Positions 2,436-62,609 of a DNA stretch of 64,000 nt are shown here, piece after piece (the first letter of the stretch is position 1; each line of letters opens with the position of its first letter). The notes under the pieces were generated by a model. That model worked only from the letters and a program-made list of their open reading frames with translations, made no database searches and had not been told where the DNA came from. Origin of the DNA: a virus (Duplodnaviria; Heunggongvirae; Uroviricota; Caudoviricetes); the IMG/VR virus record IMGVR_UViG_2718217859_000011, positions 23,757-87,756 of that record; one strand, given 5' to 3'. Position numbers and translations under genes: made by a program.

Positions 2436-3077
2436 TTATATACGTCCTTTAAGATAAGTCAGTCCTGGATGAAACCAGTAAGCCGGCACTTTTTTAAAGG
2501 GCGGATTATCAAAATCACGAAGAAGAGCCTCCCGCACAACTGCATCCTTGTCCGCACCACTGGCCAGCGCTTCAATCTCAGCAGCTACCTGCAGATATCC
2601 CATGCAACGACCAATGCGCTTCATTAGTCCCTGCTTTTTATTGTTCTTCAGGTAATCAATGGCAAATTCAATGAGCGCCTCACTGTGCTGGTGCGATGCT
2701 GGTGTTACTTTTCCATCTTCACGGATCGTGATATTCCAGTCATCGCTTGTCACAATAAAAGATGGCCGATTATCCCCCCATTCCTGGTCTTTATCCGGTG
2801 CAGACGCAATAAAATAACGTTTATTGCCTTCCTCTCCGGCACTTTTAACTGTAATGGAGTACTTTTCTGACAATGCGGTCGGTAAAAACTTTTCCTGCAA
2901 AATCTTCGCAAAGGTCCTGCGAGCAATTTTGATGCAATCATCGTAAAACGCTGCTTCCTGCTCATCGCGGCGTTTTTTTTCATCTTCAGAAACCATCAGC
3001 ACCGACAGTTTTTTATTCAGTTCAGTGATTTCATTTTCCAGGCAACTTATGCGCTGATTCATTTCTTCATGGTTCAT
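2436..3077 (-). CDS. Hypothetical protein (213 aa, N-terminal coiled coil), cargo gene inserted between pinholin and endolysin
   Basis: ATG 3 nt after the pinholin stop with GGGGAGAG RBS inside the end of the pinholin gene; AT-rich relative to flanks. Confidence 0.55.
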   Translation of the reverse strand: MNHEEMNQRISCLENEITELNKKLSVLMVSEDEKKRRDEQEAAFYDDCIKIARRTFAKILQEKFLPTALSEKYSITVKSAGEEGNKRYFIASAPDKDQEWGDNRPSFIVTSDDWNITIREDGKVTPASHQHSEALIEFAIDYLKNNKKQGLMKRIGRCMGYLQVAAEIEALASGADKDAVVREALLRDFDNPPFKKVPAYWFHPGLTYLKGRI

Positions 3078-3296: not shown

Positions 3297-3597
3297 ACCC
3301 CGTCTCCCGTTATCCGGAAGCTGACAACAATAAAAAAGCCACCCGTTAATTACTGATGGCTCTGATGCATAAACGTCATCATTCCCGACCGTTATGATTG
3401 ACAATGGTTATCATTTTTATATAAAAATACTCCCGATATGTGTTACATATCATTTCTCCACGGGGAATATCCCCACGCCAGCGTCAGACTCGTTTTCCCG
3501 TTCTCTTCTGTGCTGGCGTTTTTTTATCATGATGTCGGTACATTTATCTCCAGCACCAGGCTTTCAATCTCAACACCATACGCGGAATTTTTGGGCG

Positions 3598-3627
3598 TAA
3601 AAAATCCCCTCCGGTGAGGGGATTTGC
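3598..3627 (-). terminator. Strong hairpin (aatcccctc cggt gaggggatt) upstream of the lysis cassette
   Basis: 9-10 bp GC-rich stem with flanking A/T runs; lies between the moron block and the pinholin gene. Confidence 0.4.
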
Positions 3628-3856
3628 TTATGTAAACATTTACACTGCTTACCTGCATGGTGCCGGGTGCCTCCCGGTGAATTCAGTATCAGCACCTGAA
3701 TCCGCAATTATCCCATATACCTACTTGCTGATTGCCCCTCCGCACAGGGGGATTCACCATGCGAAATTTTTTTAACAAATGCTCAGTCTGACAGGCAACT
3801 GTCAACTGACTGAATTGTGAGACAATTAAAATTTTCTGGGCGTAACTGATACCCGG

Positions 3857-4622: not shown

Positions 4623-4699
4623 TGGCGCGTTGTACTGGATTCGAACCAGTGACCGATTGCTTAGAAGGCAATTGCTCTGTCCGACTGAGCTAACAACGC
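4623..4699 (-). tRNA. tRNA-Arg (anticodon UCU)
   Basis: Reverse complement GCGTTGTTAGCTCAGTCGGACAGAGCAATTGCCTTCTAAGCAATCGG...GGTTCGAATCC..ACAACGCGCCA folds as a cloverleaf; anticodon loop CTTCTAA. Confidence 0.8.
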
Positions 4700-4712
4700 A
4701 TGATGCAGATAA

Positions 4713-4793
4713 TGGACCGCCATCGAGGACTCGAACCCCGCACCAACAACCCTGTTATCGTGTCGTCTGCTCTTCCTGATGAGCTAATGGCGG
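4713..4793 (-). tRNA. tRNA-like sequence with atypical anticodon arm (possible degenerate tRNA)
   Basis: Acceptor stem CCGCCAT/ATGGCGG, D-arm and T-arm (GGTTCGAGTCC) are recognisable but no clean 5-bp stem with 7-nt anticodon loop could be folded by eye. Confidence 0.35.
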
Positions 4794-4800
4794 TATGTTA

Positions 4801-4876
4801 TGGTGGCCCTTGCTGGATTTGAACCAGCGACCTGGCGATTATGAGTCGCTCGCTCTCACCACTGAGCTAAAGGGCC
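4801..4876 (-). tRNA. tRNA with anticodon CAU (Ile2/Met type)
   Basis: Reverse complement GGCCCTTTAGCTCAGTGGTGAGAGCGAGCGACTCATAATCGCCAGGTCGCTGGTTCAAATCCAGCAAGGGCCACCA; anticodon loop CTCATAA. Confidence 0.75.
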
Positions 4877-23747: not shown

Positions 23748-24125
23748 ATGTCGGAAAAATTCCGTTTCAGTCAACGTAGCGAGAAAAATCTGGCTGGTGT
23801 AAAACCACAACTGGTGGCGGTTGTACGCCGTGCGCTGGCGTTGTCGGACGTCGATTTTGGTATTACCGAAGGTTTACGCACGAAAGAACGTCAGAAACAA
23901 CTTGTCGCTGAAGGCAAGAGCCAGACCATGAACAGCCGTCACCTTACTGGCGATGCTGTTGATGTCGTGGCTTACGTTGGTGGCACCATTTCATGGGACT
24001 GGCCGTTATACGAAAAAATCGCCCGAGCCTTTAAACAGGCTGCCGCAGAGCTGGGTGTCGCCATCGAATGGGGCGGAGACTGGAAAACGCTGAAAGACGG
24101 GCCTCATTTCCAGTTAAAACGCTGA
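23748..24125 (+). CDS. Endolysin, peptidase M15-like (L-alanyl-D-glutamate peptidase type)
   Basis: 126 aa from MSEKFRFSQRSEKNL; motifs SRHLTGDAVDV and DGPHFQ; GGAGG RBS. Confidence 0.65.
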   Translation: MSEKFRFSQRSEKNLAGVKPQLVAVVRRALALSDVDFGITEGLRTKERQKQLVAEGKSQTMNSRHLTGDAVDVVAYVGGTISWDWPLYEKIARAFKQAAAELGVAIEWGGDWKTLKDGPHFQLKR

Positions 24126-52423: not shown

Positions 52424-53571
52424 TTACGCCCCCTTACCTCTGAAGAGTTCAGCGACGAATGAATAAGACGGGCAAGAAATGCCGCATCGTTAATTCGGTC
52501 ATACAGACTTACAGCCAGCGGTGATTCAGCTTTTTCCAGCATGGGATAAAGCTGCTGCAACCAGACCTGATGAATTGATGAAATGTAGGAATAGAGTACG
52601 CTGGCGTTATGTGCAACGTCGCTCGGTACAGCGGGCTTTGAAAGCTGTTTCTCCATCTGGTTAAAGGCATTGATGTATGCCTCTTTGAACTGGGCAGCAC
52701 GTTTACCCGTGAAACCCATAGCAAGAAACGCAAAACCGTCGCGGGTTATTTGATAGCAAGGTAGTTTGCGGCCTGTGCAATCGGTGTAATCACTCACCGA
52801 AAAATTGCGGGCAGTGAATGATGCGGAGCATTCAAGCGTGCGGATCTTTTTCAGTACATCGTCATGACGTTTGGAGAAGAAGTTGGCAACAGCCAGGGAT
52901 GAAGTAACAGCCTGACCATCAACGATGGCAATTTCAGGTTGAGTGAGGGTTGGGATCGTAGCCATGATGGCAGCCTCTTTGGTGATTTTTAATAACTCAC
53001 CACCAAGGCTTTCCACGACCTTATTGGTGGTGAGACGTACAGGGGTGGAAATACCGGTCACCAAAGAACCCGGCCCAACCGAAGTTGGCCCTGCACGCCC
53101 CACCATAATTTGGGCGTAATGCTGCTCATGACACAAAAAAACCGCAAGAGCGCGGTTGTGCGCTTTGGTGAATTCCGGGTTTCCACGCCCGGCACCCGCT
53201 TTATAAGGTGCCTGAACAGTGTAACGTCCCGGAATGGCAGAATCAATGTGCTGGTGGTCCTTCACACTCAACAAAATCACGCCTGAATTTCCACAAAGGG
53301 CTAAAGCACTCATGCGGGTAGTCTTTGCGAAGATAGATAACGCGCTGTGTTTCTGGCTCCCAACGAATAACATGAACATAAAGTCCTCTTCCGTCACGAA
53401 ACCAGCGGTTAAGTTCCTGCACAACTCGCCCCCCACAGTCAGGTAAAGTTCTCTGTGGTTACTTACAGCCAGGAGATTTGGTAATCTGCATTCATGCCGT
53501 AACAACAGGTGTTCAGCGACGCTGACCACCAGCTGTTGCGACAAATGGTTATTTGCCGTTAAACTGTTCAT
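52420..53571 (-). CDS. Rha-family regulatory protein (Rha domain from the ATG at 52965; the N-terminal 200 codons of the open frame are of uncertain status)
   Basis: C-terminal 181 aa MATIPTLTQPEIAIVDGQAVTSSLAVANFFSKRHDDVLKKI resembles the Rha family; AAGAGG RBS before 52965. Confidence 0.5.
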   Translation of the reverse strand: MNSLTANNHLSQQLVVSVAEHLLLRHECRLPNLLAVSNHRELYLTVGGELCRNLTAGFVTEEDFMFMLFVGSQKHSALSIFAKTTRMSALALCGNSGVILLSVKDHQHIDSAIPGRYTVQAPYKAGAGRGNPEFTKAHNRALAVFLCHEQHYAQIMVGRAGPTSVGPGSLVTGISTPVRLTTNKVVESLGGELLKITKEAAIMATIPTLTQPEIAIVDGQAVTSSLAVANFFSKRHDDVLKKIRTLECSASFTARNFSVSDYTDCTGRKLPCYQITRDGFAFLAMGFTGKRAAQFKEAYINAFNQMEKQLSKPAVPSDVAHNASVLYSYISSIHQVWLQQLYPMLEKAESPLAVSLYDRINDAAFLARLIHSSLNSSEVRGRK

Positions 53572-54131
53572 GCGTTAGTTTCTCCACAGATACAAAACGC
53601 CACGACGCCCGGAGCTGCACACTCGCGGGCGTCACTCTTTTCTGGAGCGCAAAAGATTTTGTAGACCAGTGCTGCATGCTCCTGGAGCTTCGAAATTGAC
53701 AGATACAACTCATCATTAATTGCTGTCTGCTCGTGTGGCTCCACTACCCCATCTTCGATTGCCGAACGAATCTGCTTTGAGTAACTCCCGATCTGTTCGA
53801 TGACTTCCAGCAGGCGCTGGTTTATATCGGCGTTCTCTACTTCCTCAATTTCAGGAAGCGATACAAACACCCCACCAGCAGACTGTGCGACAGCATCCGC
53901 AATGTAGTGAGTGCCAGCCGCGCGCTGTAAAATCATTGCCCATCCCAGCGGGAAAATCTGATCGCCATCTGCACGAAGGCGGTTGAATAAAGCGTTCTCT
54001 GTTACATCCAGCCACTCAGCAGCTTCAGAGTAACCCCCCGGCAACGCCGCGATAGTTTTTCTGACAGCTTTCACGTACCACTCAGGCTGTTTTTCTACTT
54101 TCCAGTGATGCTTACCCACGGTTAGCCTCAT
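53568..54131 (-). CDS. Hypothetical regulatory protein in the cII position
   Basis: 187 aa directly downstream of the Cro-like gene; assignment by position only. Confidence 0.4.
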   Translation of the reverse strand: MRLTVGKHHWKVEKQPEWYVKAVRKTIAALPGGYSEAAEWLDVTENALFNRLRADGDQIFPLGWAMILQRAAGTHYIADAVAQSAGGVFVSLPEIEEVENADINQRLLEVIEQIGSYSKQIRSAIEDGVVEPHEQTAINDELYLSISKLQEHAALVYKIFCAPEKSDARECAAPGVVAFCICGETNA

Positions 54132-54162
54132 CGTTCTGTGGTTAAAAATTAAAGGTGTTCTG

Positions 54163-54363
54163 TTAATCTTTCGGATAGATATCCGGTCTTAAGTCAGATT
54201 TCGTAATTGCACCTGACGTGCATTGCTCAAGTTTTTTAGCCAGCACAAAACTGGCTTTTTTATAACCATTGAAAACCAGCCGTAAGTAGCCTGGTGTTGA
54301 GCCAACTTTTCCGGCCAACTCGCCCTGCTGTTCTTTGGTTAAAGAGTCCCAATACGCTTTCAT
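54163..54363 (-). CDS. Cro-like repressor (Cro/CI-type HTH)
   Basis: 66 aa from MKAYWDSLTKEQQGELAGKVGSTPGYLRLVFNGYKK; divergent from the CI-like gene. Confidence 0.6.
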   Translation of the reverse strand: MKAYWDSLTKEQQGELAGKVGSTPGYLRLVFNGYKKASFVLAKKLEQCTSGAITKSDLRPDIYPKD

Positions 54364-54366
54364 ACA

Positions 54367-54437
54367 ATATGTATCTCTTATATACATATTACATGATTGA
54401 AATGAACCTTCAAGATACTTGTACCCTATCGGTACAA
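54367..54437. promoter_or_regulatory. Immunity-region operator/promoter segment with two palindromes
   Basis: ATATGTAT-n7-ATACATAT (54367-54389) and TTGTACC-ctatc-GGTACAA (54419-54437) between the divergent Cro-like and CI-like genes. Confidence 0.4.
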
Positions 54438-54453
54438 AGGTTTTAATTTCGTT

Positions 54454-55128
54454 ATGAAAACAGTCCATGACATCCGGCGGTCTAACGCCAGAAAACTGAG
54501 AGATGGTGTTGGCGGGAATTCTTCCTTTGCCACCATGATTGATCGCGAACCAACCCAGACCAGCAGGTTTATGGGAGATGGTGCTACTAAAAATATCGGT
54601 GACAGCATGGCACGGCACATCGAAAAATGTTTCGACCTGCCTGTCGGATGGCTTGATCAAGAACACCAGACAACGAACATCACAAAAAAACCTGATGTTT
54701 CAATCACTAATAAACAAATAACGTTAGTCCCTGTCATATCATGGGTACAGGCCGGAGCATGGAAAGAAGTTGGCTATTCTGAGGTTGATTTGAGCACAAC
54801 AGAAACATATCCCTGCCCTGTACCCTGTGGCGAAATGACTTATATATTGAGGGTGATTGGTGATTCAATGATTGATGAGTACCGTCCGGGGGACATGATT
54901 TTTGTCGATCCAGAAGTACCAGCCTGCCACGGTGATGACGTTATTGCATTGATGCACGATACAGGTGAAACCACCTTCAAAAGGTTGATAGAAGACGGGA
55001 CACAGCGTTATCTCAAAGCATTAAACCCCAACTGGCCTGAGCCTTACATTAAGATAAACGGTAATTGCTCTATCATTGGTACAGTTATTTTCTCAGGAAA
55101 ACCAAGAAGATACAAAATTAAAGCCTGA
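54454..55128 (+). CDS. CI-like repressor (N-terminal HTH, C-terminal LexA/S24-type peptidase domain)
   Basis: 224 aa; C-terminal region with Ser...Lys-type self-cleavage domain pattern (RVIGDSMIDEY...KRL). Confidence 0.7.
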   Translation: MKTVHDIRRSNARKLRDGVGGNSSFATMIDREPTQTSRFMGDGATKNIGDSMARHIEKCFDLPVGWLDQEHQTTNITKKPDVSITNKQITLVPVISWVQAGAWKEVGYSEVDLSTTETYPCPVPCGEMTYILRVIGDSMIDEYRPGDMIFVDPEVPACHGDDVIALMHDTGETTFKRLIEDGTQRYLKALNPNWPEPYIKINGNCSIIGTVIFSGKPRRYKIKA

Positions 55129-55140
55129 TCAATGTCTATG

Positions 55141-55166
55141 AACCTGCTTCGGCAGGTTTTTTTATA
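55141..55166 (+). terminator. Rho-independent terminator after the CI-like gene
   Basis: aacctgc-ttcg-gcaggtt hairpin followed by ttttttt. Confidence 0.6.
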
Positions 55167-55323
55167 CTTGACAATGTACCATTAAGATACATAATGTACC
55201 TGCATAAGATATCGAACAGGCAGGACGCCCACGAAGTAGCCGTCCGGGGCATACGAAGACCGGAATGATTCGTAAATAAAAAAGCGCCCAAGTGGACGCT
55301 TCACTTTTGAACTGGATTTATAA

Positions 55324-55533
55324 TCAATTATTTTCTTCATAAATGTTTTGTAATGTATTTATGAGATTTGGTATTTCTTTTATGGGAAAAGAATATATTG
55401 GACTTTCGATAATTTTATCAGATTCAAATGGTGGTTGTTTGCAGGACAGTTGAACTATAACTGAATTATGATCTTTAACTGGCACACAGTACCAACCACA
55501 TACATCAAAAACAGGAGTATTTTGATTATCCAT
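55324..55533 (-). CDS. Small AT-rich protein (69 aa) adjacent to the immunity region
   Basis: ATG at 55533 with GAGG RBS; very AT-rich gene and flanks. Confidence 0.4.
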   Translation of the reverse strand: MDNQNTPVFDVCGWYCVPVKDHNSVIVQLSCKQPPFESDKIIESPIYSFPIKEIPNLINTLQNIYEENN

Positions 55534-55799
55534 TATGTCCTCGACAACTAAAAACACTGCGTACAAACCTCAAAAGCAGGGAGTTATTTATAAAATTTCA
55601 TAAAGAATAATTACTGATAGCGACAATTCATTGTTCTTGAATTTTGAAAAATAGCAAGACAAAACAATGTAAACTTATTTAAGAAAACTTCTTATTATGT
55701 AAACAAAACAACCAATTCGTTATATAGGAAAAACAAATAGTACGCAAGAAAATATTCAACAGGGGTATTACATTCAACCATAAGAGTAATCGTCTCTTT

Positions 55800-56377
55800 G
55801 GTAACTAATACCGAACATTTTATTGTAACACGTCGTATGGCACATGCGTCGTTAGCGGTCTGGGGACGTTAAAGGGGACAATCCACTCCTTGCTCGGGCA
55901 AACAAACCAGGTAGCCGGAATGTGCAAGTCAATGATGATGCTGATAAGACGCCTAACCAGCGTGGCGATCCGGTTTGACGCCTGGGAAGAGACCAGGGTG
56001 CAACGATGAGGGCATTTATGGAGCCGCGACAAAGTGTGGTGCCGTAACTGGCTAAGTGCTCTCAGCGTTGTGGTAATCCGCGAAATGGCGCGGCGGTAAG
56101 TATGGCGGGGTTACTCTTTCCCCGTTGAGGACACCGGATTGTCAGGTTGACCATACGCCTGAGTGACAACCCCACCACAACAGCCACTGCTTTGGCGGTA
56201 CCAGTTTGTACACTTGCTTCCGGCTGGTACCGCTCTTTTTACAAAACAGAGAAGAGCATCACCGGACGACGGGCTCATAACCCAATCCATCCGGGCGGCT
56301 GCCACCGCAGGTGTTCTTCTCTGTTTTGTGGAGAAACCAACCGACCTTGCAGGGTCGATATGATGAGGAGCAGCAAA
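55800..56377 (+). other. ORF-poor, structured leader region upstream of the early operon
   Basis: About 580 bp without a convincing ORF on either strand; several long inverted repeats. Confidence 0.35.
56196..56240 (+). terminator. Strong hairpin with U-tract inside the leader (candidate terminator/attenuator with boxA-like CGCTCTTTTTA)
   Basis: gcggtaccag...ctggtaccgc 10-bp stem followed by tcttttta. Confidence 0.45.
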
Positions 56378-56614
56378 ATGGCTAGCGAACGCAGTACTGA
56401 TGTGCAGGCATTTATCGGGGAGCTGGACGGCGGCGTATTTGAAACCAAAATCGGCGCAGTTCTCAGTGAAGTCGCTTCCGGTGTGATGAACACGAAAACC
56501 AAAGGTAAGGTCTCACTCAACCTGGAAATCGAACCATTTGATGAGAACCGTGTGAAAATCAAACACAAACTCTCATATGTTCGCCCGACTAACCGCGGGA
56601 AAATTTCCGAATAA
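56378..56614 (+). CDS. Hypothetical early protein (78 aa); frame continues past an in-frame TAA to 56740
   Basis: GAGGAG RBS before ATG 56378; in-frame TAA at 56612-56614 followed by 41 further sense codons. Confidence 0.45.
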   Translation: MASERSTDVQAFIGELDGGVFETKIGAVLSEVASGVMNTKTKGKVSLNLEIEPFDENRVKIKHKLSYVRPTNRGKISE

Positions 56615-56805
56615 GACACCACCGAAACGCCGATGTATGTCAATCTCGGTGGTCGCCTGACTATTCTGCAGGAAGACCAGGGACAATTACTGACTCTTGC
56701 CGGTGAACCTGACGGAAAACTACGCGCAGCAGGTCATTAATATCGTTCTTAATTAACTGATTATTTATCTCATCACTGAATATCTTTATATAGTGAGGAC
56801 TTATT

Positions 56806-57630
56806 ATGTCTCAGAACTTAGACGCAACCGCAATTAATCAAATCCATGCCCTTATTTCTGCTCAGGGTGTTAATGAAATTATCAGTAAGATTGGTGCCGA
56901 TGCTGTGGCATTGCCTGAGAATTTCCGCATTCATGATCTGGAAAAATTTAATTTAAATCGCTTCCGTTTCCGTGGTGCGCTTTCCACTGCCAGCATCGAT
57001 GACTTTACCCGTTATTCTAAAGATCTTGCAGATGAAGGCACCCGCTGCTTTATCGATGCCGATAATATGCGTGCCGTCAGTGTGCTTAACCTGGGTACTA
57101 TTGATGAACCAGGTCACGCAGATAACACCGCCACTCTCAAACTGAAAAAGACAGCGCCGTTCTCTGCTCTGTTGTCTGTTAATGGCGAGCGTAACTTCCA
57201 GAAGTCACTGGCAGAATGGATTGAAGACTGGGCCGACTACCTTGTGGGCTTTGATGCTAATGGTGACGCCATTCAGGCAACAAAAGCAGCTGCGGCAGTC
57301 CGTAAAATCACAATTGAAGCAAACCAGACCGCTGATTTTGAAGACAATGACTTCAGCGGCAAACGCTCTCTGATGGAGTCTGTCGAAGCGAAGACCAAAG
57401 ACATTATGCCAGTGGCATTTGAATTTAAATGCGTTCCGTTTGAAGGTCTGAAAGAACGTCCGTTTAAATTACGCCTCAGCATTATCACTGGCGATCGTCC
57501 TGTACTGGTTCTGCGCATTATTCAGCTGGAAGCGGTGCAGGAAGAAATGGCTAACGAATTTCGTGATCTGCTTGTTGAGAAATTCAAAGACAGCAAAGTA
57601 GAAACCTTTATTGGTACTTTCACCGCCTGA
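56806..57630 (+). CDS. YfdQ-like prophage protein (DUF2303-type)
   Basis: 274 aa; recalled resemblance to CPS-53 YfdQ (unverified). Confidence 0.5.
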
Positions 57631-57757
57631 TTTCATTACTGCAAATGCCCCTGCGGGGGCATTTATGGAAACGTAATTAACTCAATAATCGCCTGAAGGC
57701 GAGGGTTTTCTTTAACCAAAATTCAGAGCGGTGCAGCGCATATACGTGGAGAACAAA

Positions 57758-58294
57758 ATGTCATTTATTAAAACTTTTTCCGGGAAGCATTTTTATTATG
57801 ACAAGATAAATAAAGACGACATCGTGATTAACGATATCGCGGTTTCCCTTTCAAATATCTGCCGCTTTGCCGGTCATCTTTCTCACTTCTACAGTGTCGC
57901 CCAACATGCGGTGCTTTGCAGCCAGCTGGTGCCGCAGGAATTTGCTTTTGAAGCGTTAATGCATGATGCAACAGAAGCGTATTGCCAGGACATTCCCGCA
58001 CCACTGAAACGCCTTCTTCCTGACTATAAACGGATGGAAGAAAAAATAGACGCCGTAATCCGTGAGAAATACGGGTTACCCCCAGTTATGAGTACACCCG
58101 TGAAATATGCCGATCTCATCATGCTGGCAACCGAACGCCGCGATCTCGGGCTTGATGATGGCTCTTTCTGGCCTGTACTGGAAGGCATCCCGGCAACAGA
58201 GATGTTCAACGTGATTCCACTGGCACCGGGCCATGCCTACGGGATGTTTATGGAACGCTTCAACGAGTTATCGGAATTACGCAAATGTGCATAA
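57758..58294 (+). CDS. HD-domain phosphohydrolase (YfdR-like)
   Basis: ATG at 57758; HD motif region (HLSHFYSVAQHAV, EALMHDATEAY). Confidence 0.55.
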   Translation: MSFIKTFSGKHFYYDKINKDDIVINDIAVSLSNICRFAGHLSHFYSVAQHAVLCSQLVPQEFAFEALMHDATEAYCQDIPAPLKRLLPDYKRMEEKIDAVIREKYGLPPVMSTPVKYADLIMLATERRDLGLDDGSFWPVLEGIPATEMFNVIPLAPGHAYGMFMERFNELSELRKCA

Positions 58295-59163
58295 CTCATG
58301 TAGTTAGTTTTTCTGGCGGGAGAACATCCGCATATCTTGTTCACCTGATGGAAGAACAAAGAAAGGCTGGCAATAACGTCTGCTACATCTTTATGGATAC
58401 CGGTTGCGAACATCCGCTGACATACCGCTTTATCCGGGAGGTTGTGAAGTTCTGGGACATACCACTAACTGTGTTACAGGTCGATATAAATCCTGAGCTT
58501 GGGCAGCCAAATGGTTATACAGAATGGGAGCCAAAGGATATTCAGACACGAATGCCGGTGCTTAAACCGTTTATGGACATGGTTAAAAAGTACGGTACGC
58601 CATACATCGGCGGCGCGTTCTGTACTGACAGGCTAAAACTCATCCCTTTCACGAAATACTGCGATAACCATTTCGGGCGAGGTAATTACATCACATGGCT
58701 GGGTATTCGTGCAGACGAACCCCGTAGGCTGAAACCGAAATCGGGCGTCCGGTATCTTGCCGAGCTGTCAGATTTTGATAAGTCGGATGTTATCCGGTGG
58801 TGGCGAAAACAACCTTTTGATTTGCAAATCCCGGAGCATCTCGGGAACTGTGTTTTCTGCATCAAAAAGTCAACGCAAAAGCTGGGGCTTGCATGTAAAG
58901 ACGAACCAGGTCTGATGCGAGTTTTTAATGAGCTGGTTACAGGCAAACACGTCAGGGATGGTCATCGCAGAACAGGTAAAGACATTATGTACCGTGGTCA
59001 CCTGACGCTTGACGGAATTGCCAGAATGTCTGCCAACAGCGACTACAGAAATTTGTATCAGGCGATGGTACAGGACAGGCGATTCGATACCGGCTCGTGT
59101 TCAGAGTCATGTGAAATCTGGGGTGATCAATTGGAATTGGAATTCGAAGAGGTAGGGGTATGA
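58285..59163 (+). CDS. PAPS-reductase-like PP-loop protein
   Basis: 292 aa; PP-loop SFSGGRTS near the N-terminus. Confidence 0.65.
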   Translation: MCITHVVSFSGGRTSAYLVHLMEEQRKAGNNVCYIFMDTGCEHPLTYRFIREVVKFWDIPLTVLQVDINPELGQPNGYTEWEPKDIQTRMPVLKPFMDMVKKYGTPYIGGAFCTDRLKLIPFTKYCDNHFGRGNYITWLGIRADEPRRLKPKSGVRYLAELSDFDKSDVIRWWRKQPFDLQIPEHLGNCVFCIKKSTQKLGLACKDEPGLMRVFNELVTGKHVRDGHRRTGKDIMYRGHLTLDGIARMSANSDYRNLYQAMVQDRRFDTGSCSESCEIWGDQLELEFEEVGV

Positions 59164-61091: not shown

Positions 61092-62609
61092 GTGAATTCA
61101 CGACAATCAAAAGATATTTATCTTGGATTGTGTGGATATGTTGGATGTGGCATGAGAACGATAAACAAAATTATCGAAGAGATATCCAAAGAATGGGGGT
61201 ATAATGTTGTACACATCCGCATAAGTGCGCTTATGGAAAACCCATTATATTTTGAGCCAGCAGCACTGAAGGTATCCGAAAGCACACAAGTTAATAGACA
61301 TTTAAAACTCCAGGATATTGCCAATAAACTTCGTAAACATTACAAAAAAAATGAGTTGCTTGCAGAAGCTGCTATTGCAGCAATCGCAGCAGAGAAAAAT
61401 AATATTGATTATAATAATGATGAATATAAAGGTACTGTCTTCATCATTGATCAATTCAAAAGGCCGGAAGAAATAGAGTTATTCAGAGTTATATATCAGC
61501 ATAATTTCTATTTGTTAGGAGTTTTGCGCGATTTAGATTACCGAATTCCGAATCTCATTGATGACGAATCGACAAAGAACGACCTTCATTTAATTATCAA
61601 TATTGATAATAAATCCTCTGATCCGTATGGACAAAGAACCGGGGAGACCATTCTTGATTCAGATTTTTTTATTAAAAATAACTTCAGCCAAAAAAGTGAA
61701 TTAAAGAAGAAGATTGATCGGTTTTTCGGTCTTATTCATGGCAAAAATGGTTTAACACCAACTTTTAACGAGAAAGGTATGTATGCTGCCTTTTCAACAT
61801 CATTACAATCAGCTTGTTTATCACGTCAAGTAGGGGCTGCACTGTTTGATGATGAAGGGAATTTGCTTGCCGTGGGTAAGAACGACGTACCTAAAGCTGG
61901 TGGCGGGTTGTATAGCAGTGATGATTTTGATAACGATCATCGATGCGTTCACAAAAGTGGTAAGTGTTATAATGATGCAAACAAGCTAAAAATTAAAGAC
62001 CGTATAAAAAGCATATTATCAACCGAAGTAAGAACTGTATTAGGTATTTCCGCAGGACAAACTGTTGCCGATATTAATATAACACGACTTCTAAACAAAT
62101 TAGATAATATTGCAGAAGGCATTTACAAAGACAGCAAAATATCAAGTGTAATGGAGTACTCCAGATCAATTCATGCTGAAATGGACGTCATTACATCAAT
62201 GGCTAGAAAACAAAACGGCGATACTAAAGATAAAATTCTTTTTACGACAACCTATCCCTGCCACAACTGTGCAAGGCATATTGTCGCAGCTGGAATAAAA
62301 AAAGTAGTATATATAGAGCCATTTGATAAAAGCCTTGCTCTTGATCTGCATAATGATGCAATAACAAAGAACGAAGAATCTTCCAAAGTAATATTTTGTG
62401 ATTTTGAGGGGGTATCACCCCGCCGCTACCATAAATTTTTTAGACCAACGGATGAACGTAAAGATGATAAAACAGGGGCTGCAAATAAATTTAATGCTCG
62501 CTACAAAAATCATATAGATGTTCAATATCTTGATGATTATAGAAAGTATGAGACTGTTGTAGCTAAGAAATTTATAAACGAGATTGCTAAACCAGAGTCT
62601 CAGCCATAA
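61092..62609 (+). CDS. Two-domain protein: N-terminal NTP-binding-like domain + C-terminal cytidine/deoxycytidylate deaminase domain (AvcD/dCTP-deaminase-like defence candidate)
   Basis: 505 aa; C-terminal zinc-deaminase signature HAEMDVI ... PCHNCARHIVAAGIKKVVYIEP; N-terminal glycine-rich loop GLCGYVGCGMRT; strongly AT-rich. Confidence 0.65.
   Translation: MNSRQSKDIYLGLCGYVGCGMRTINKIIEEISKEWGYNVVHIRISALMENPLYFEPAALKVSESTQVNRHLKLQDIANKLRKHYKKNELLAEAAIAAIAAEKNNIDYNNDEYKGTVFIIDQFKRPEEIELFRVIYQHNFYLLGVLRDLDYRIPNLIDDESTKNDLHLIINIDNKSSDPYGQRTGETILDSDFFIKNNFSQKSELKKKIDRFFGLIHGKNGLTPTFNEKGMYAAFSTSLQSACLSRQVGAALFDDEGNLLAVGKNDVPKAGGGLYSSDDFDNDHRCVHKSGKCYNDANKLKIKDRIKSILSTEVRTVLGISAGQTVADINITRLLNKLDNIAEGIYKDSKISSVMEYSRSIHAEMDVITSMARKQNGDTKDKILFTTTYPCHNCARHIVAAGIKKVVYIEPFDKSLALDLHNDAITKNEESSKVIFCDFEGVSPRRYHKFFRPTDERKDDKTGAANKFNARYKNHIDVQYLDDYRKYETVVAKKFINEIAKPESQP

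Follow-up and report, generated by a model that had tools for sequence, protein, structure and literature searches.

The stretch of DNA analysed here (the window) comprises 64,000 nucleotides of the virus record IMGVR_UViG_2718217859_000011 (positions 23,757 to 87,756) and contains a lambdoid prophage with an e14-type immunity region, in which cro (ymfT) and a gene of the CII family lie on the minus strand and cI (ymfK) lies on the plus strand. Further downstream on the plus strand is a leader, ending at position 56377, that is followed by yfdP, yfdQ (DUF2303), yfdR, a PAPS-reductase-like gene and a gene for an anti-phage dCTP deaminase. In a similarity search, an 841-bp query covering the leader (55560-56400) was 100% identical to E. 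coli GB089 (NZ_CP013663). The leader proper (55814-56377) has a guanine plus cytosine (GC) content of 0.54, as compared with 0.33 for the AT-rich insertion that precedes it and 0.51 for the whole window, and no reading frame is conserved over its 5' domain among 42 homologs, so that its description in an earlier note on this DNA, as free of open reading frames (ORFs) and of normal GC content, holds. We consider it probable that the region serves an e14/cdtI-type lambdoid prophage devoid of an N gene as the untranslated leader, built of several domains, of its pL (early-left) operon, and that the transcript is processed in the way proposed below. The parts of the leader, all on the plus strand, are:

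55831-56003, plus strand: module A, a structured RNA domain of about 173 nt with five helices and a pseudoknot, defined by covariation
56000-56017 / 56054-56071, plus strand: P7, a long irregular helix around a small insert, defined by covariation; putative RNase III site
56068-56190, plus strand: module B (the P8 domain), a 'dicF-like' precursor domain, defined by homology to Qin and P1
56194-56240, plus strand: module C, the hairpin and U-tract to which the earlier note had drawn attention; a Rho-independent terminator
56236-56260 / 56310-56334, plus strand: module D, a 25-bp duplex around conserved inner hairpins, defined by covariation; putative second RNase III site
56342-56346 / 56353-56357, plus strand: a small hairpin, kept before the ATG of yfdP
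56365-56370, plus strand: the Shine-Dalgarno sequence GAGGAG, of which GAGG is conserved before the ATG
56378, plus strand: the start codon of yfdP, a gene annotated in GB089 and cdtI

The comparative alignment that the earlier note had suggested as a check revealed compensatory changes in module A, P7 and module D. The alignment of module A, built from 42 representatives that are all less than 93% identical, has 33 pairs, 94% paired, of which 17 show compensatory changes; the covariation score was reached by none of 500 shuffles, and slid controls were at most 46% paired. Module D was compared in 19 sequences from different genera and is 94.9% paired, with 15 compensatory pairs; again, no shuffle in 500 reached the score, and slid controls did not exceed 56%. 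The long-range stem proposed earlier is therefore real, and at about 25 bp is larger than had been claimed. P7, for which duplex energy served to pre-select the strands, has 18 pairs that are 93.6% paired, six of them with a compensatory change. Measured against the length of about 20 bp expected of RNase III stems, P7 has 18 bp and D has 25 bp, and both covary.

The hairpin of module C is formed by G56194-G56204 with C56224-T56234, through 10 Watson-Crick pairs and one G-U pair (two more G-U pairs are possible); its stem of 11-13 bp encloses a loop of 15-19 nt and is followed by TCTTTTT (56234-56240), so that, both as read and as predicted, the claim of a terminator-like hairpin is borne out. 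A simple terminator scan missed it because the loop limit of the scan is 8 nt. In a pairwise alignment with Qin, the hairpin sits exactly at the position of DicF, with which it shares UUUGGCGGUAyCAGUUU and CCGCyCUUUUUA; it begins with UUUGGCGGUA and ends with CCGCUCUUUUU at the homologous place, and a 19-nt gap falls exactly over the DicF 5' seed (UUUUCUGGUGACG / UUUCUGGUGAC). The homologous DicF hairpin terminates transcription (PMC10448788). Moreover, window positions 56175-56241 are the reverse complement of the 67-nt CP013663.1 (GB089) row in the supplementary alignment of sRNA-17, a 193-nt RNA of E. coli K1 RS218 whose ends were mapped by 5'/3' rapid amplification of cDNA ends (RACE) and which was seen on a Northern blot; its authors list CP013663.1 as a 'degenerative sRNA-17' (PMC7719688). 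The identity is limited to the 3' 67 nt but includes the whole of hairpin C, and the 3' end of sRNA-17 is the RACE-mapped one. The landmarks of sRNA-17 are found in the window at 56068 (the GUUGUG of the 5' end) and at 56236-56240 (the U-tract), and in mEp460 a full sRNA-17, with the GUUGUG start and the U-tract end, occupies the same leader between P7 and module D. As judged from these sequences, hairpin C is known biology, the 3' stem-loop of a small RNA of the sRNA-17/DicF type, and the window copy is a chimera in which a Qin/P1-type B domain is joined to an sRNA-17-type hairpin lacking the DicF 5' seed. The seed (UUUCUGGUGAC) is the single-stranded part of DicF that pairs with the ftsZ and xylR mRNAs; since it is missing, the window copy should not repress ftsZ as DicF does.

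The 5' boundary of the small RNA is marked by P7. The 3' end of P7 coincides with the start of the homology to Qin (window position 56067; position 3000-3001, approximately, of the Qin locus L002), and counting 190 nt back from the 3' end of DicF leads to the same P7/B junction. In Qin, RNase III generates the 5' end of a DicF species of 190 nt, and RNase E generates a 53-nt form (PMC10448788). In mEp460, the 5' end that RACE gave for sRNA-17 (GTTGTG...) also falls at this junction. Module B is 89-93% identical to the Qin segment directly upstream of dicF; a similarity search located 56067-56173 in the majority of E. coli genomes, at a site in Qin that is flanked by ydfC and dicB and lies directly 5' of dicF. 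It is homologous to the 'dicF-like region' that follows Pban in P1, with compensatory changes between the two (GUAUGG/CCAUAC versus GCAUGG/CCAUGC, and GGGG/CCCC versus CUGGG/CCCAG). Folding predicts that it is closed by a helix of GUUGUGGU with ACCACAAC (approximately 56067-56076 with 56176-56185) around inner hairpins. GUUG (56067-56070) can pair with CAAC at the base of P7 (56001-56004) or, as part of GUUGUGGU, with ACCACAAC (56176-56183) in the closing helix of P8; these pairings are mutually exclusive and may reflect a processing-dependent rearrangement. Neither Aragorn (55000-57000) nor the Rfam tRNA model finds a tRNA in the slot occupied by module B.

Upstream of the leader, the following features connect it to the immunity region:

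54454-55128, plus strand: cI (ymfK), gene of the immunity region
55140-55159: the terminator of cI, directly 5' of the candidate pL
55168-55195, plus strand: candidate pL promoter, TTGACA-16-CATAAT, with 11/12 consensus matches
55274-55813, minus strand: an AT-rich insertion (moron) of about 600 bp, GC 0.33, between pL and the leader
55324-55566, minus strand: the moron ORF, of 80 aa, with its own terminator at 55302-55281

Read by eye, the candidate promoter overlaps an operator-like TGTACCC..GATACA repeat, akin to repeats found between cI and cro. A counterpart lies after cI in cdtI, SfV and Ayreon, the record of the last marking it as a promoter; on this sequence basis we take 55168-55195 to be pL. 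A promoter scan found no plus-strand promoter-like site inside 55800-56400. The earlier note was right that an N-like gene is missing: the interval from pL to yfdP contains none in the window, nor in cdtI, Ayreon, mEp460 or SfV. The product of SfV orf33 was considered as a hidden N and rejected, being acidic and without an arginine-rich motif. The first 70 nt or so past pL (55200-55273; CAGGCAGGACGCCCACGAAGUAGCCGUCCGGGGCAUACGAAGACCGGAAUGAUUCG, with two small hairpins) are kept in SfV before orf33 and are absent in cdtI and mEp460. The moron is also absent from cdtI and mEp460, in which the leader begins about 25-50 nt past the promoter. Neither the moron ORF nor YfdP matches a Pfam family.

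We propose the following scheme. From a derepressed pL, RNA polymerase would transcribe A, P7 and B, and a large share of the polymerases would stop at the intrinsic terminator C. RNase III would cut P7, with RNase E possibly cutting further downstream, to release an RNA of about 173 nt (approximately 56068-56240), which would correspond here to sRNA-17 and to the DicF species of 190 nt, as well as a separate 5' RNA of about 200 nt that would carry module A. Read-through past C would give the mRNA of yfdP, yfdQ, yfdR and the genes that follow. Because the D duplex takes in the U-tract of the terminator, it can form only in read-through transcripts; in these, the U-tract and GUGGAGA would complete the 25-bp duplex and create the second RNase III site, cleavage of which would trim the 3' end of the small RNA and would leave the mRNA with a defined, hairpin-protected 5' end. 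Ends of DicF made by RNase III are reported in read-through transcripts (Faubladier 1990, as cited in PMC10448788). RNA ends and their dependence on RNase III and RNase E are known from the homologs; from these we infer both the processing in the window prophage and the balance of read-through at the terminator. Processing is in our view the best-supported function of the two long stems, and the suggestion that the region holds an RNA-based processing element, a terminator-like hairpin and a conserved structured noncoding leader can be retained, in contrast to the idea that the hairpin itself acts as an antiterminator of the nut or put type, which is not sustained.

Several points weigh against this scheme. 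P7 and D are assigned as RNase III sites from their position and helix shape, cleavage by RNase III having been shown at the homologous Qin position only (PMC10448788). Single-sequence folding energies of the leader are no better than those of shuffled sequences (z = -1.4 and -0.3); the evidence for its structure is comparative, not thermodynamic. The authors of sRNA-17 regard it as an independent, ArcA-regulated gene, with a 5' end that is a transcription start under an ArcA-controlled promoter (PMC7719688), and an internal promoter at the sRNA-17-type 5' end, rather than processing, is possible. In the window, the antisense moron, with its partly bidirectional terminator, separates pL from the leader, which may therefore be poorly transcribed here. 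Lastly, when yfdP is compared with its counterparts in GB089 and cdtI, a G-to-T change is seen to have introduced a stop codon (E79 to stop, TAA at 56612-56614); on its sequence, the window copy is a pseudogene, a hint that the left operon of this prophage is perhaps decaying. A second G-to-T change (R to L) is found at 56646; in GB089 and cdtI the protein has 120 aa, and the two base differences that set the window apart from GB089 lie a little downstream of the query that is otherwise 100% identical.

The organization of the leader recurs elsewhere. One order was seen repeatedly in a survey of 128 loci: module A is followed by P7, then by a slot, in some cases by a small hairpin, and finally by a DicF-type terminator. 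The slot is filled either by a tRNA or, as in the window, Qin and P1, by a domain of the P8 type; at about 26 loci it holds a tRNA-Arg, the first base of which abuts the 3' strand of P7 and which is followed by the DicF-type terminator. There are also tRNAs directly upstream of module A, in P1 and in the locus L069. Modules A, B, C and D occur in differing combinations, indicating free recombination among the 128 loci; these homologies, the covariation and the shuffling of modules are direct observations. The homology of the leader to other phages begins at 55814, and its first 175 nt or so recur upstream of a tRNA-Arg in another prophage as well as in Kosakonia and Phytobacter. Morons sit at module borders, including either side of module A. 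With a tRNA-Arg in the slot, tRNAs beside module A and shuffled modules, the unit looks like a phage tRNA operon, of which module A and P7 would form the leader and the small RNA with its terminator the trailer. Module D travels with yfdP, in Mangrovibacter, Enterobacter, Kosakonia, Phytobacter and others, and its core (AGAGCAU / GUGCUCU) resembles P7. The 3' strand of module D (56310-56336) reads GGUGCUCUUUUGUGUUGUGUGGAGAAAC in homologs, most clearly in L009-L030, the window version (GGUGUUCUUCUCUGUUUUGUGGAGAAAC) being more diverged.

Module A is the part of the leader that the earlier note did not single out, and the only element of the leader that could plausibly act on elongation. Its fold in the window consists of:

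55831-55839 / 55843-55851: helix P1
helix P2, which encloses the variable helix P3; helix P4, variable
55949-55952 / 55960-55963: helix P5
55955-55958 with 55972-55975: pseudoknot between AACC in the P5 loop and GGTT
55981-55985 / 55993-55997: helix P6, with a GAAGAGA loop

In the alignment, invariant single-stranded blocks alternate with covarying helices (P1, P2, P3, P5 and P6), and the pseudoknot joins the P5 loop to GGUG. Many of the pairs are G-U, which makes the fold specific to the plus strand. The minimum-energy fold of the single sequence disagrees with the fold supported by covariation. A long-range GCACAU/AUGUGC helix, suggested by RNAalifold on the first alignment, conflicts with P1 and was dropped in favour of P1, since P1 covaries and both strands of the long-range helix are invariant. 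A covariance model of module A (R2) identifies a single copy in the window (130.6 bits, E = 4e-34). As for the Rfam/Infernal search that the earlier note had called for, the leader has no match to any family, whether at gathering or at permissive thresholds, none matches module A in the window at E <= 10, and an Rfam scan of 14 related loci returned tRNAs only; it is our own model that recognizes module A. An exact-sequence literature search for module A retrieved nothing in the searchable papers.

The domain is widespread. An exact 18-mer of module A matches at least 120 IMG/VR contigs, and the module is present in 1828 of 5426 complete E. coli genomes (34%), with 546 places on plasmids; the Prokaryotic Genome Annotation Pipeline (PGAP) annotates nothing at the sites of the module. 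It occurs in the phages P1 and P7, between trnI and ban; the P1 record (AF234172) leaves it unannotated and annotates the 'dicF-like region' after Pban. It is also found in a small island among late genes. In P1 (locus L280, AF234172, about 2528-2800), module A is followed by UUUUCUGGUGAUGA, which resembles the DicF 5' seed UUUCUGGUGACG, and then by a 14-codon upstream ORF and ban; judging from the sequences, the DicF seed may have derived from a junction like that found 3' of module A in P1. To our reading, module A is a new RNA family and an independent, mobile RNA module; SfV, whose leader does without it, suggests from sequence that it is dispensable in that phage. Somewhat more probable, in our estimate, than the converse is that it is a functional, mobile phage RNA gene with a protein-binding or catalytic activity of its own. 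We favour a stable, trans-acting RNA over a cis-acting antiterminator, and we prefer to see in module A an accessory, processed RNA that probably acts in trans.

The alternative that survives best is that module A is a cis-acting RNA that modifies RNA polymerase, as put of HK022 does, and replaces the missing N, allowing read-through of terminator C, of the terminator after yfdQ and of Rho sites in the long untranslated leader. Module A does occupy the niche of put, downstream of pL and before a strong terminator in phages without N, and its invariant single-stranded blocks and pseudoknot suggest a specific macromolecular partner. The P1 hairpin shares ACGGCG...CAUGCGUCG(N1-2)AGCG with stem I of put, with a G-U pair at the same position, and the GGAAGAG loop resembles the stem II loop of HK639; by eye, the likeness amounts to a local resemblance of 9+4 nt only. 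A published comment holds that phages of the yfdPQR type without N 'may' rely on a mechanism like that of put (PMC12315714), and mEp460, although it has no N gene, belongs to a collection of phages defined by their dependence on Nus. However, a put covariance model (R1), built from 39 put sequences (HK022, HK639 and IMG/VR), finds nothing in 55800-56400 at E <= 10, whether or not filters are applied. Conversely, R2 has no match in HK022, HK639 or 16 other put loci; searched against these, Qin and 29 yfdP loci, it returned true copies of module A only. Moreover, SfV has the same pL, P7, P8, terminator C and stem D, with xis and int at the end of its left operon, but no module A, and Qin transcripts pass the DicF terminator without module A. 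In P1 the module lies 2.3 kb from the promoter, after tRNAs, and elsewhere it stands in the island among late genes or has morons inserted on either side of it; the region of P1 that carries it is dispensable for lytic growth under CRISPR interference (CRISPRi). Since the put tests fail in both directions, and given SfV, Qin and the P1 CRISPRi result, we think cis antitermination by module A unlikely, though worth keeping in view. To the same small chance we would assign the idea of a new RNA class acting on the transcription machinery, N-independent and possibly Nus-dependent, which would make module A the third RNA-only processive antiterminator after put and EAR. If so, the module A leader would shield long untranslated phage transcripts (tRNAs, small RNAs and early genes) from intrinsic and Rho-dependent termination. 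The best match to R1 in the immunity region (53509-53567, minus strand; 9 bits, E of about 0.06 over 8 kb; AACGGCA..AACCAUUUGUCG) lies in the pR operon, between the gene of the CII family and the one after it, where HK022 has putR; it is probably due to chance.

Much less credible is a riboswitch or attenuator, in which module A, as an aptamer for a ligand or a protein, would control the formation of terminator C. The size of the module, its pseudoknot and its invariant junction nucleotides are aptamer-like, a terminator does lie downstream, and the alternative P7/P8 pairings of GUUG (56067-56070) offer a possible switch. But between module A and the terminator lie some 190 nt and two domains that fold on their own, and no alternative pairing of the module with the terminator was found. 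What follows the module also varies (a tRNA, the ban leader, an ORF or no nearby terminator), and the cargo genes have no common metabolic theme.

Even less probable is a lambda-type nut site, in which CGCUCUUUUUA, in the 3' arm of hairpin C, would be a boxA that recruits NusB/NusE with or without an N-like protein. The boxA-like CGCTCTT (56231-56237) noted earlier is indeed present, and CGCUCUUUUUA differs from lambda boxA (CGCUCUUA) at one position of eight; strings like GCUCUU turn up again in the 3' strands of P7 and D, homologs of which read UGCUCUUU followed by UGUGUGG, and the host-phage group is reported to be Nus-dependent. The resemblance to boxA is due to chance, however: the 7-mer is no commoner in the window than expected (six occurrences against 7.5), 18 of 19 homologous terminators lack it, it is base-paired here within the terminator stem, neither a boxB-type hairpin nor an N gene accompanies it, and the recurrent GCUCUU strings lie within long duplexes. 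The nut site was accordingly rejected. In the D homologs, UGCUCUUU followed by UGUGUGG is reminiscent of rrn boxA and boxC, in a strand that lies within a long duplex.

That the region encodes a protein, through the minus-strand ORFs annotated in cdtI (orf40) and mEp460 (mEp460_036/037) or through a TTG-started extension of yfdP, can be set aside almost entirely: ORFs of 64-155 aa are present, some of them annotated in phage records, and at least one stop-free frame exists in 38 of the 42 module A homologs, but those overlapping the leader are short, the stop-free frames scatter over five strand/frame combinations relative to a fixed anchor, the lengths of the domain fall into all three classes modulo 3, substitutions in module A, P7 and D track base-pair covariation, and PGAP annotates nothing at the region in E. 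coli genomes. As no conserved protein is found in the 5' domain, the opposite-strand ORFs of cdtI and mEp460 are very likely spurious.

Other observations concern the surroundings of the leader and related RNAs. The left operon of the window ends with the anti-phage dCTP deaminase (61092-62609), and in some cassettes (loci L069 and L092) the first gene past the leader has a Tad2-like (anti-Thoeris) domain (Pfam E = 1e-9); the leader thus heads operons rich in defence and counter-defence genes. On the minus strand of the immunity region, at 53023-53211, matches to the Rfam C4 antisense RNA (83.6 bits) and to isrK (67 bits) stand back to back, with a weak c4-a1b1 target match; they fall within the 5' part of an ORF that RefSeq names a Rha-family regulator. 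Because the antirepressor-like domain begins only at about 52950, that ORF probably over-extends over a P1-type C4/ant immunity RNA system. About 800 nt downstream of two phage tRNA genes, and on the same strand, is a match to STnc100 (148.7 bits), the features lying at window 3593-3791 and 4626-4876 on the minus strand; Qin (L002, 3182-3391) has an STnc100-like match of 34 bits, below the threshold, which extends over the sequence just past dicF and into the beginning of dicB. STnc100 is perhaps one more component of the toolkit of tRNA and small-RNA leaders.

If the proposed scheme is right, DicF, sRNA-17 and the 'dicF-like region' of P1 would be versions of one modular cassette, apparently undescribed, with a common plan: a leader, an RNase III stem, a slot for a tRNA or former tRNA, and a trailer small RNA with its terminator. 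Such a cassette would explain the 190-nt DicF species and would make the 5' end of sRNA-17 a probable processing site. A pseudoknotted domain of about 170 nt, present in a third of complete E. coli genomes, in P1-type plasmids and in P1 itself without an Rfam family or an annotation, should be of interest to RNA and phage biologists alike, and how phages without N pass a strong terminator placed ahead of all their early-left genes becomes a directly testable question.

It is useful to compare the leader with known systems. The put RNA binds the zinc-binding domain of the beta' subunit and suppresses termination without protein factors. The location of the leader is that of put, in an early operon past pL/pR of a phage without N; however, the put elements of HK022 and HK639 span about 75 nt in two stems, with conserved GAACGGCGCG, UAAACCAUGCGUCGG, GGCGGG and CGGCAAU, and the leader lacks this arrangement, module A being about 170 nt long, with a pseudoknot and without the invariant GGCGGG and CGGCAAU. 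Rfam has no put family. The leader of lambda N contains an RNase III site, and the two are alike in having a long duplex between pL and the first gene, the processing enzymes of the window leader being putative. The 3'ETS-leuZ RNA is a small RNA released from the spacers and trailers of tRNA operons; as with RNAs of this type, the small RNA in the sister cassettes is terminator-proximal and comes from a transcript bearing a tRNA, whereas the window copy has no tRNA.

The closest relatives are the small RNAs of E. coli and its phages. In place of the 5' 125 nt or so of sRNA-17 (its P8 domain), the window has the Qin/P1-type module B, and the paper describing sRNA-17 neither sets it in the context of a leader nor connects it with DicF, and mentions neither the RNase III stems nor module A (PMC7719688). 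In P1, module B and the terminator hairpin lie about 100 nt past the C1-controlled Pban, with P7-type stems and tRNAs in the same operon, but the order differs, B and the terminator coming first and module A 2.3 kb later. The dicBF operon of Qin (RF00039) is pL-like and repressor-controlled, as here, but the protein genes ydfABC precede dicF, and the R2 model finds no module A in Qin. The loop and 3' arm of hairpin C differ from those of DicF, and the Rfam DicF model (RF00039; gathering score 48 bits), which recovers Qin DicF at 76.7 bits in the same search, has no match in 55780-56400 at E <= 10 or in 53000-59000 at E <= 1. Nevertheless, hairpin C shares the setting of DicF: in an early operon under repressor control, it closes off a conserved precursor domain and forms a Rho-independent terminator.

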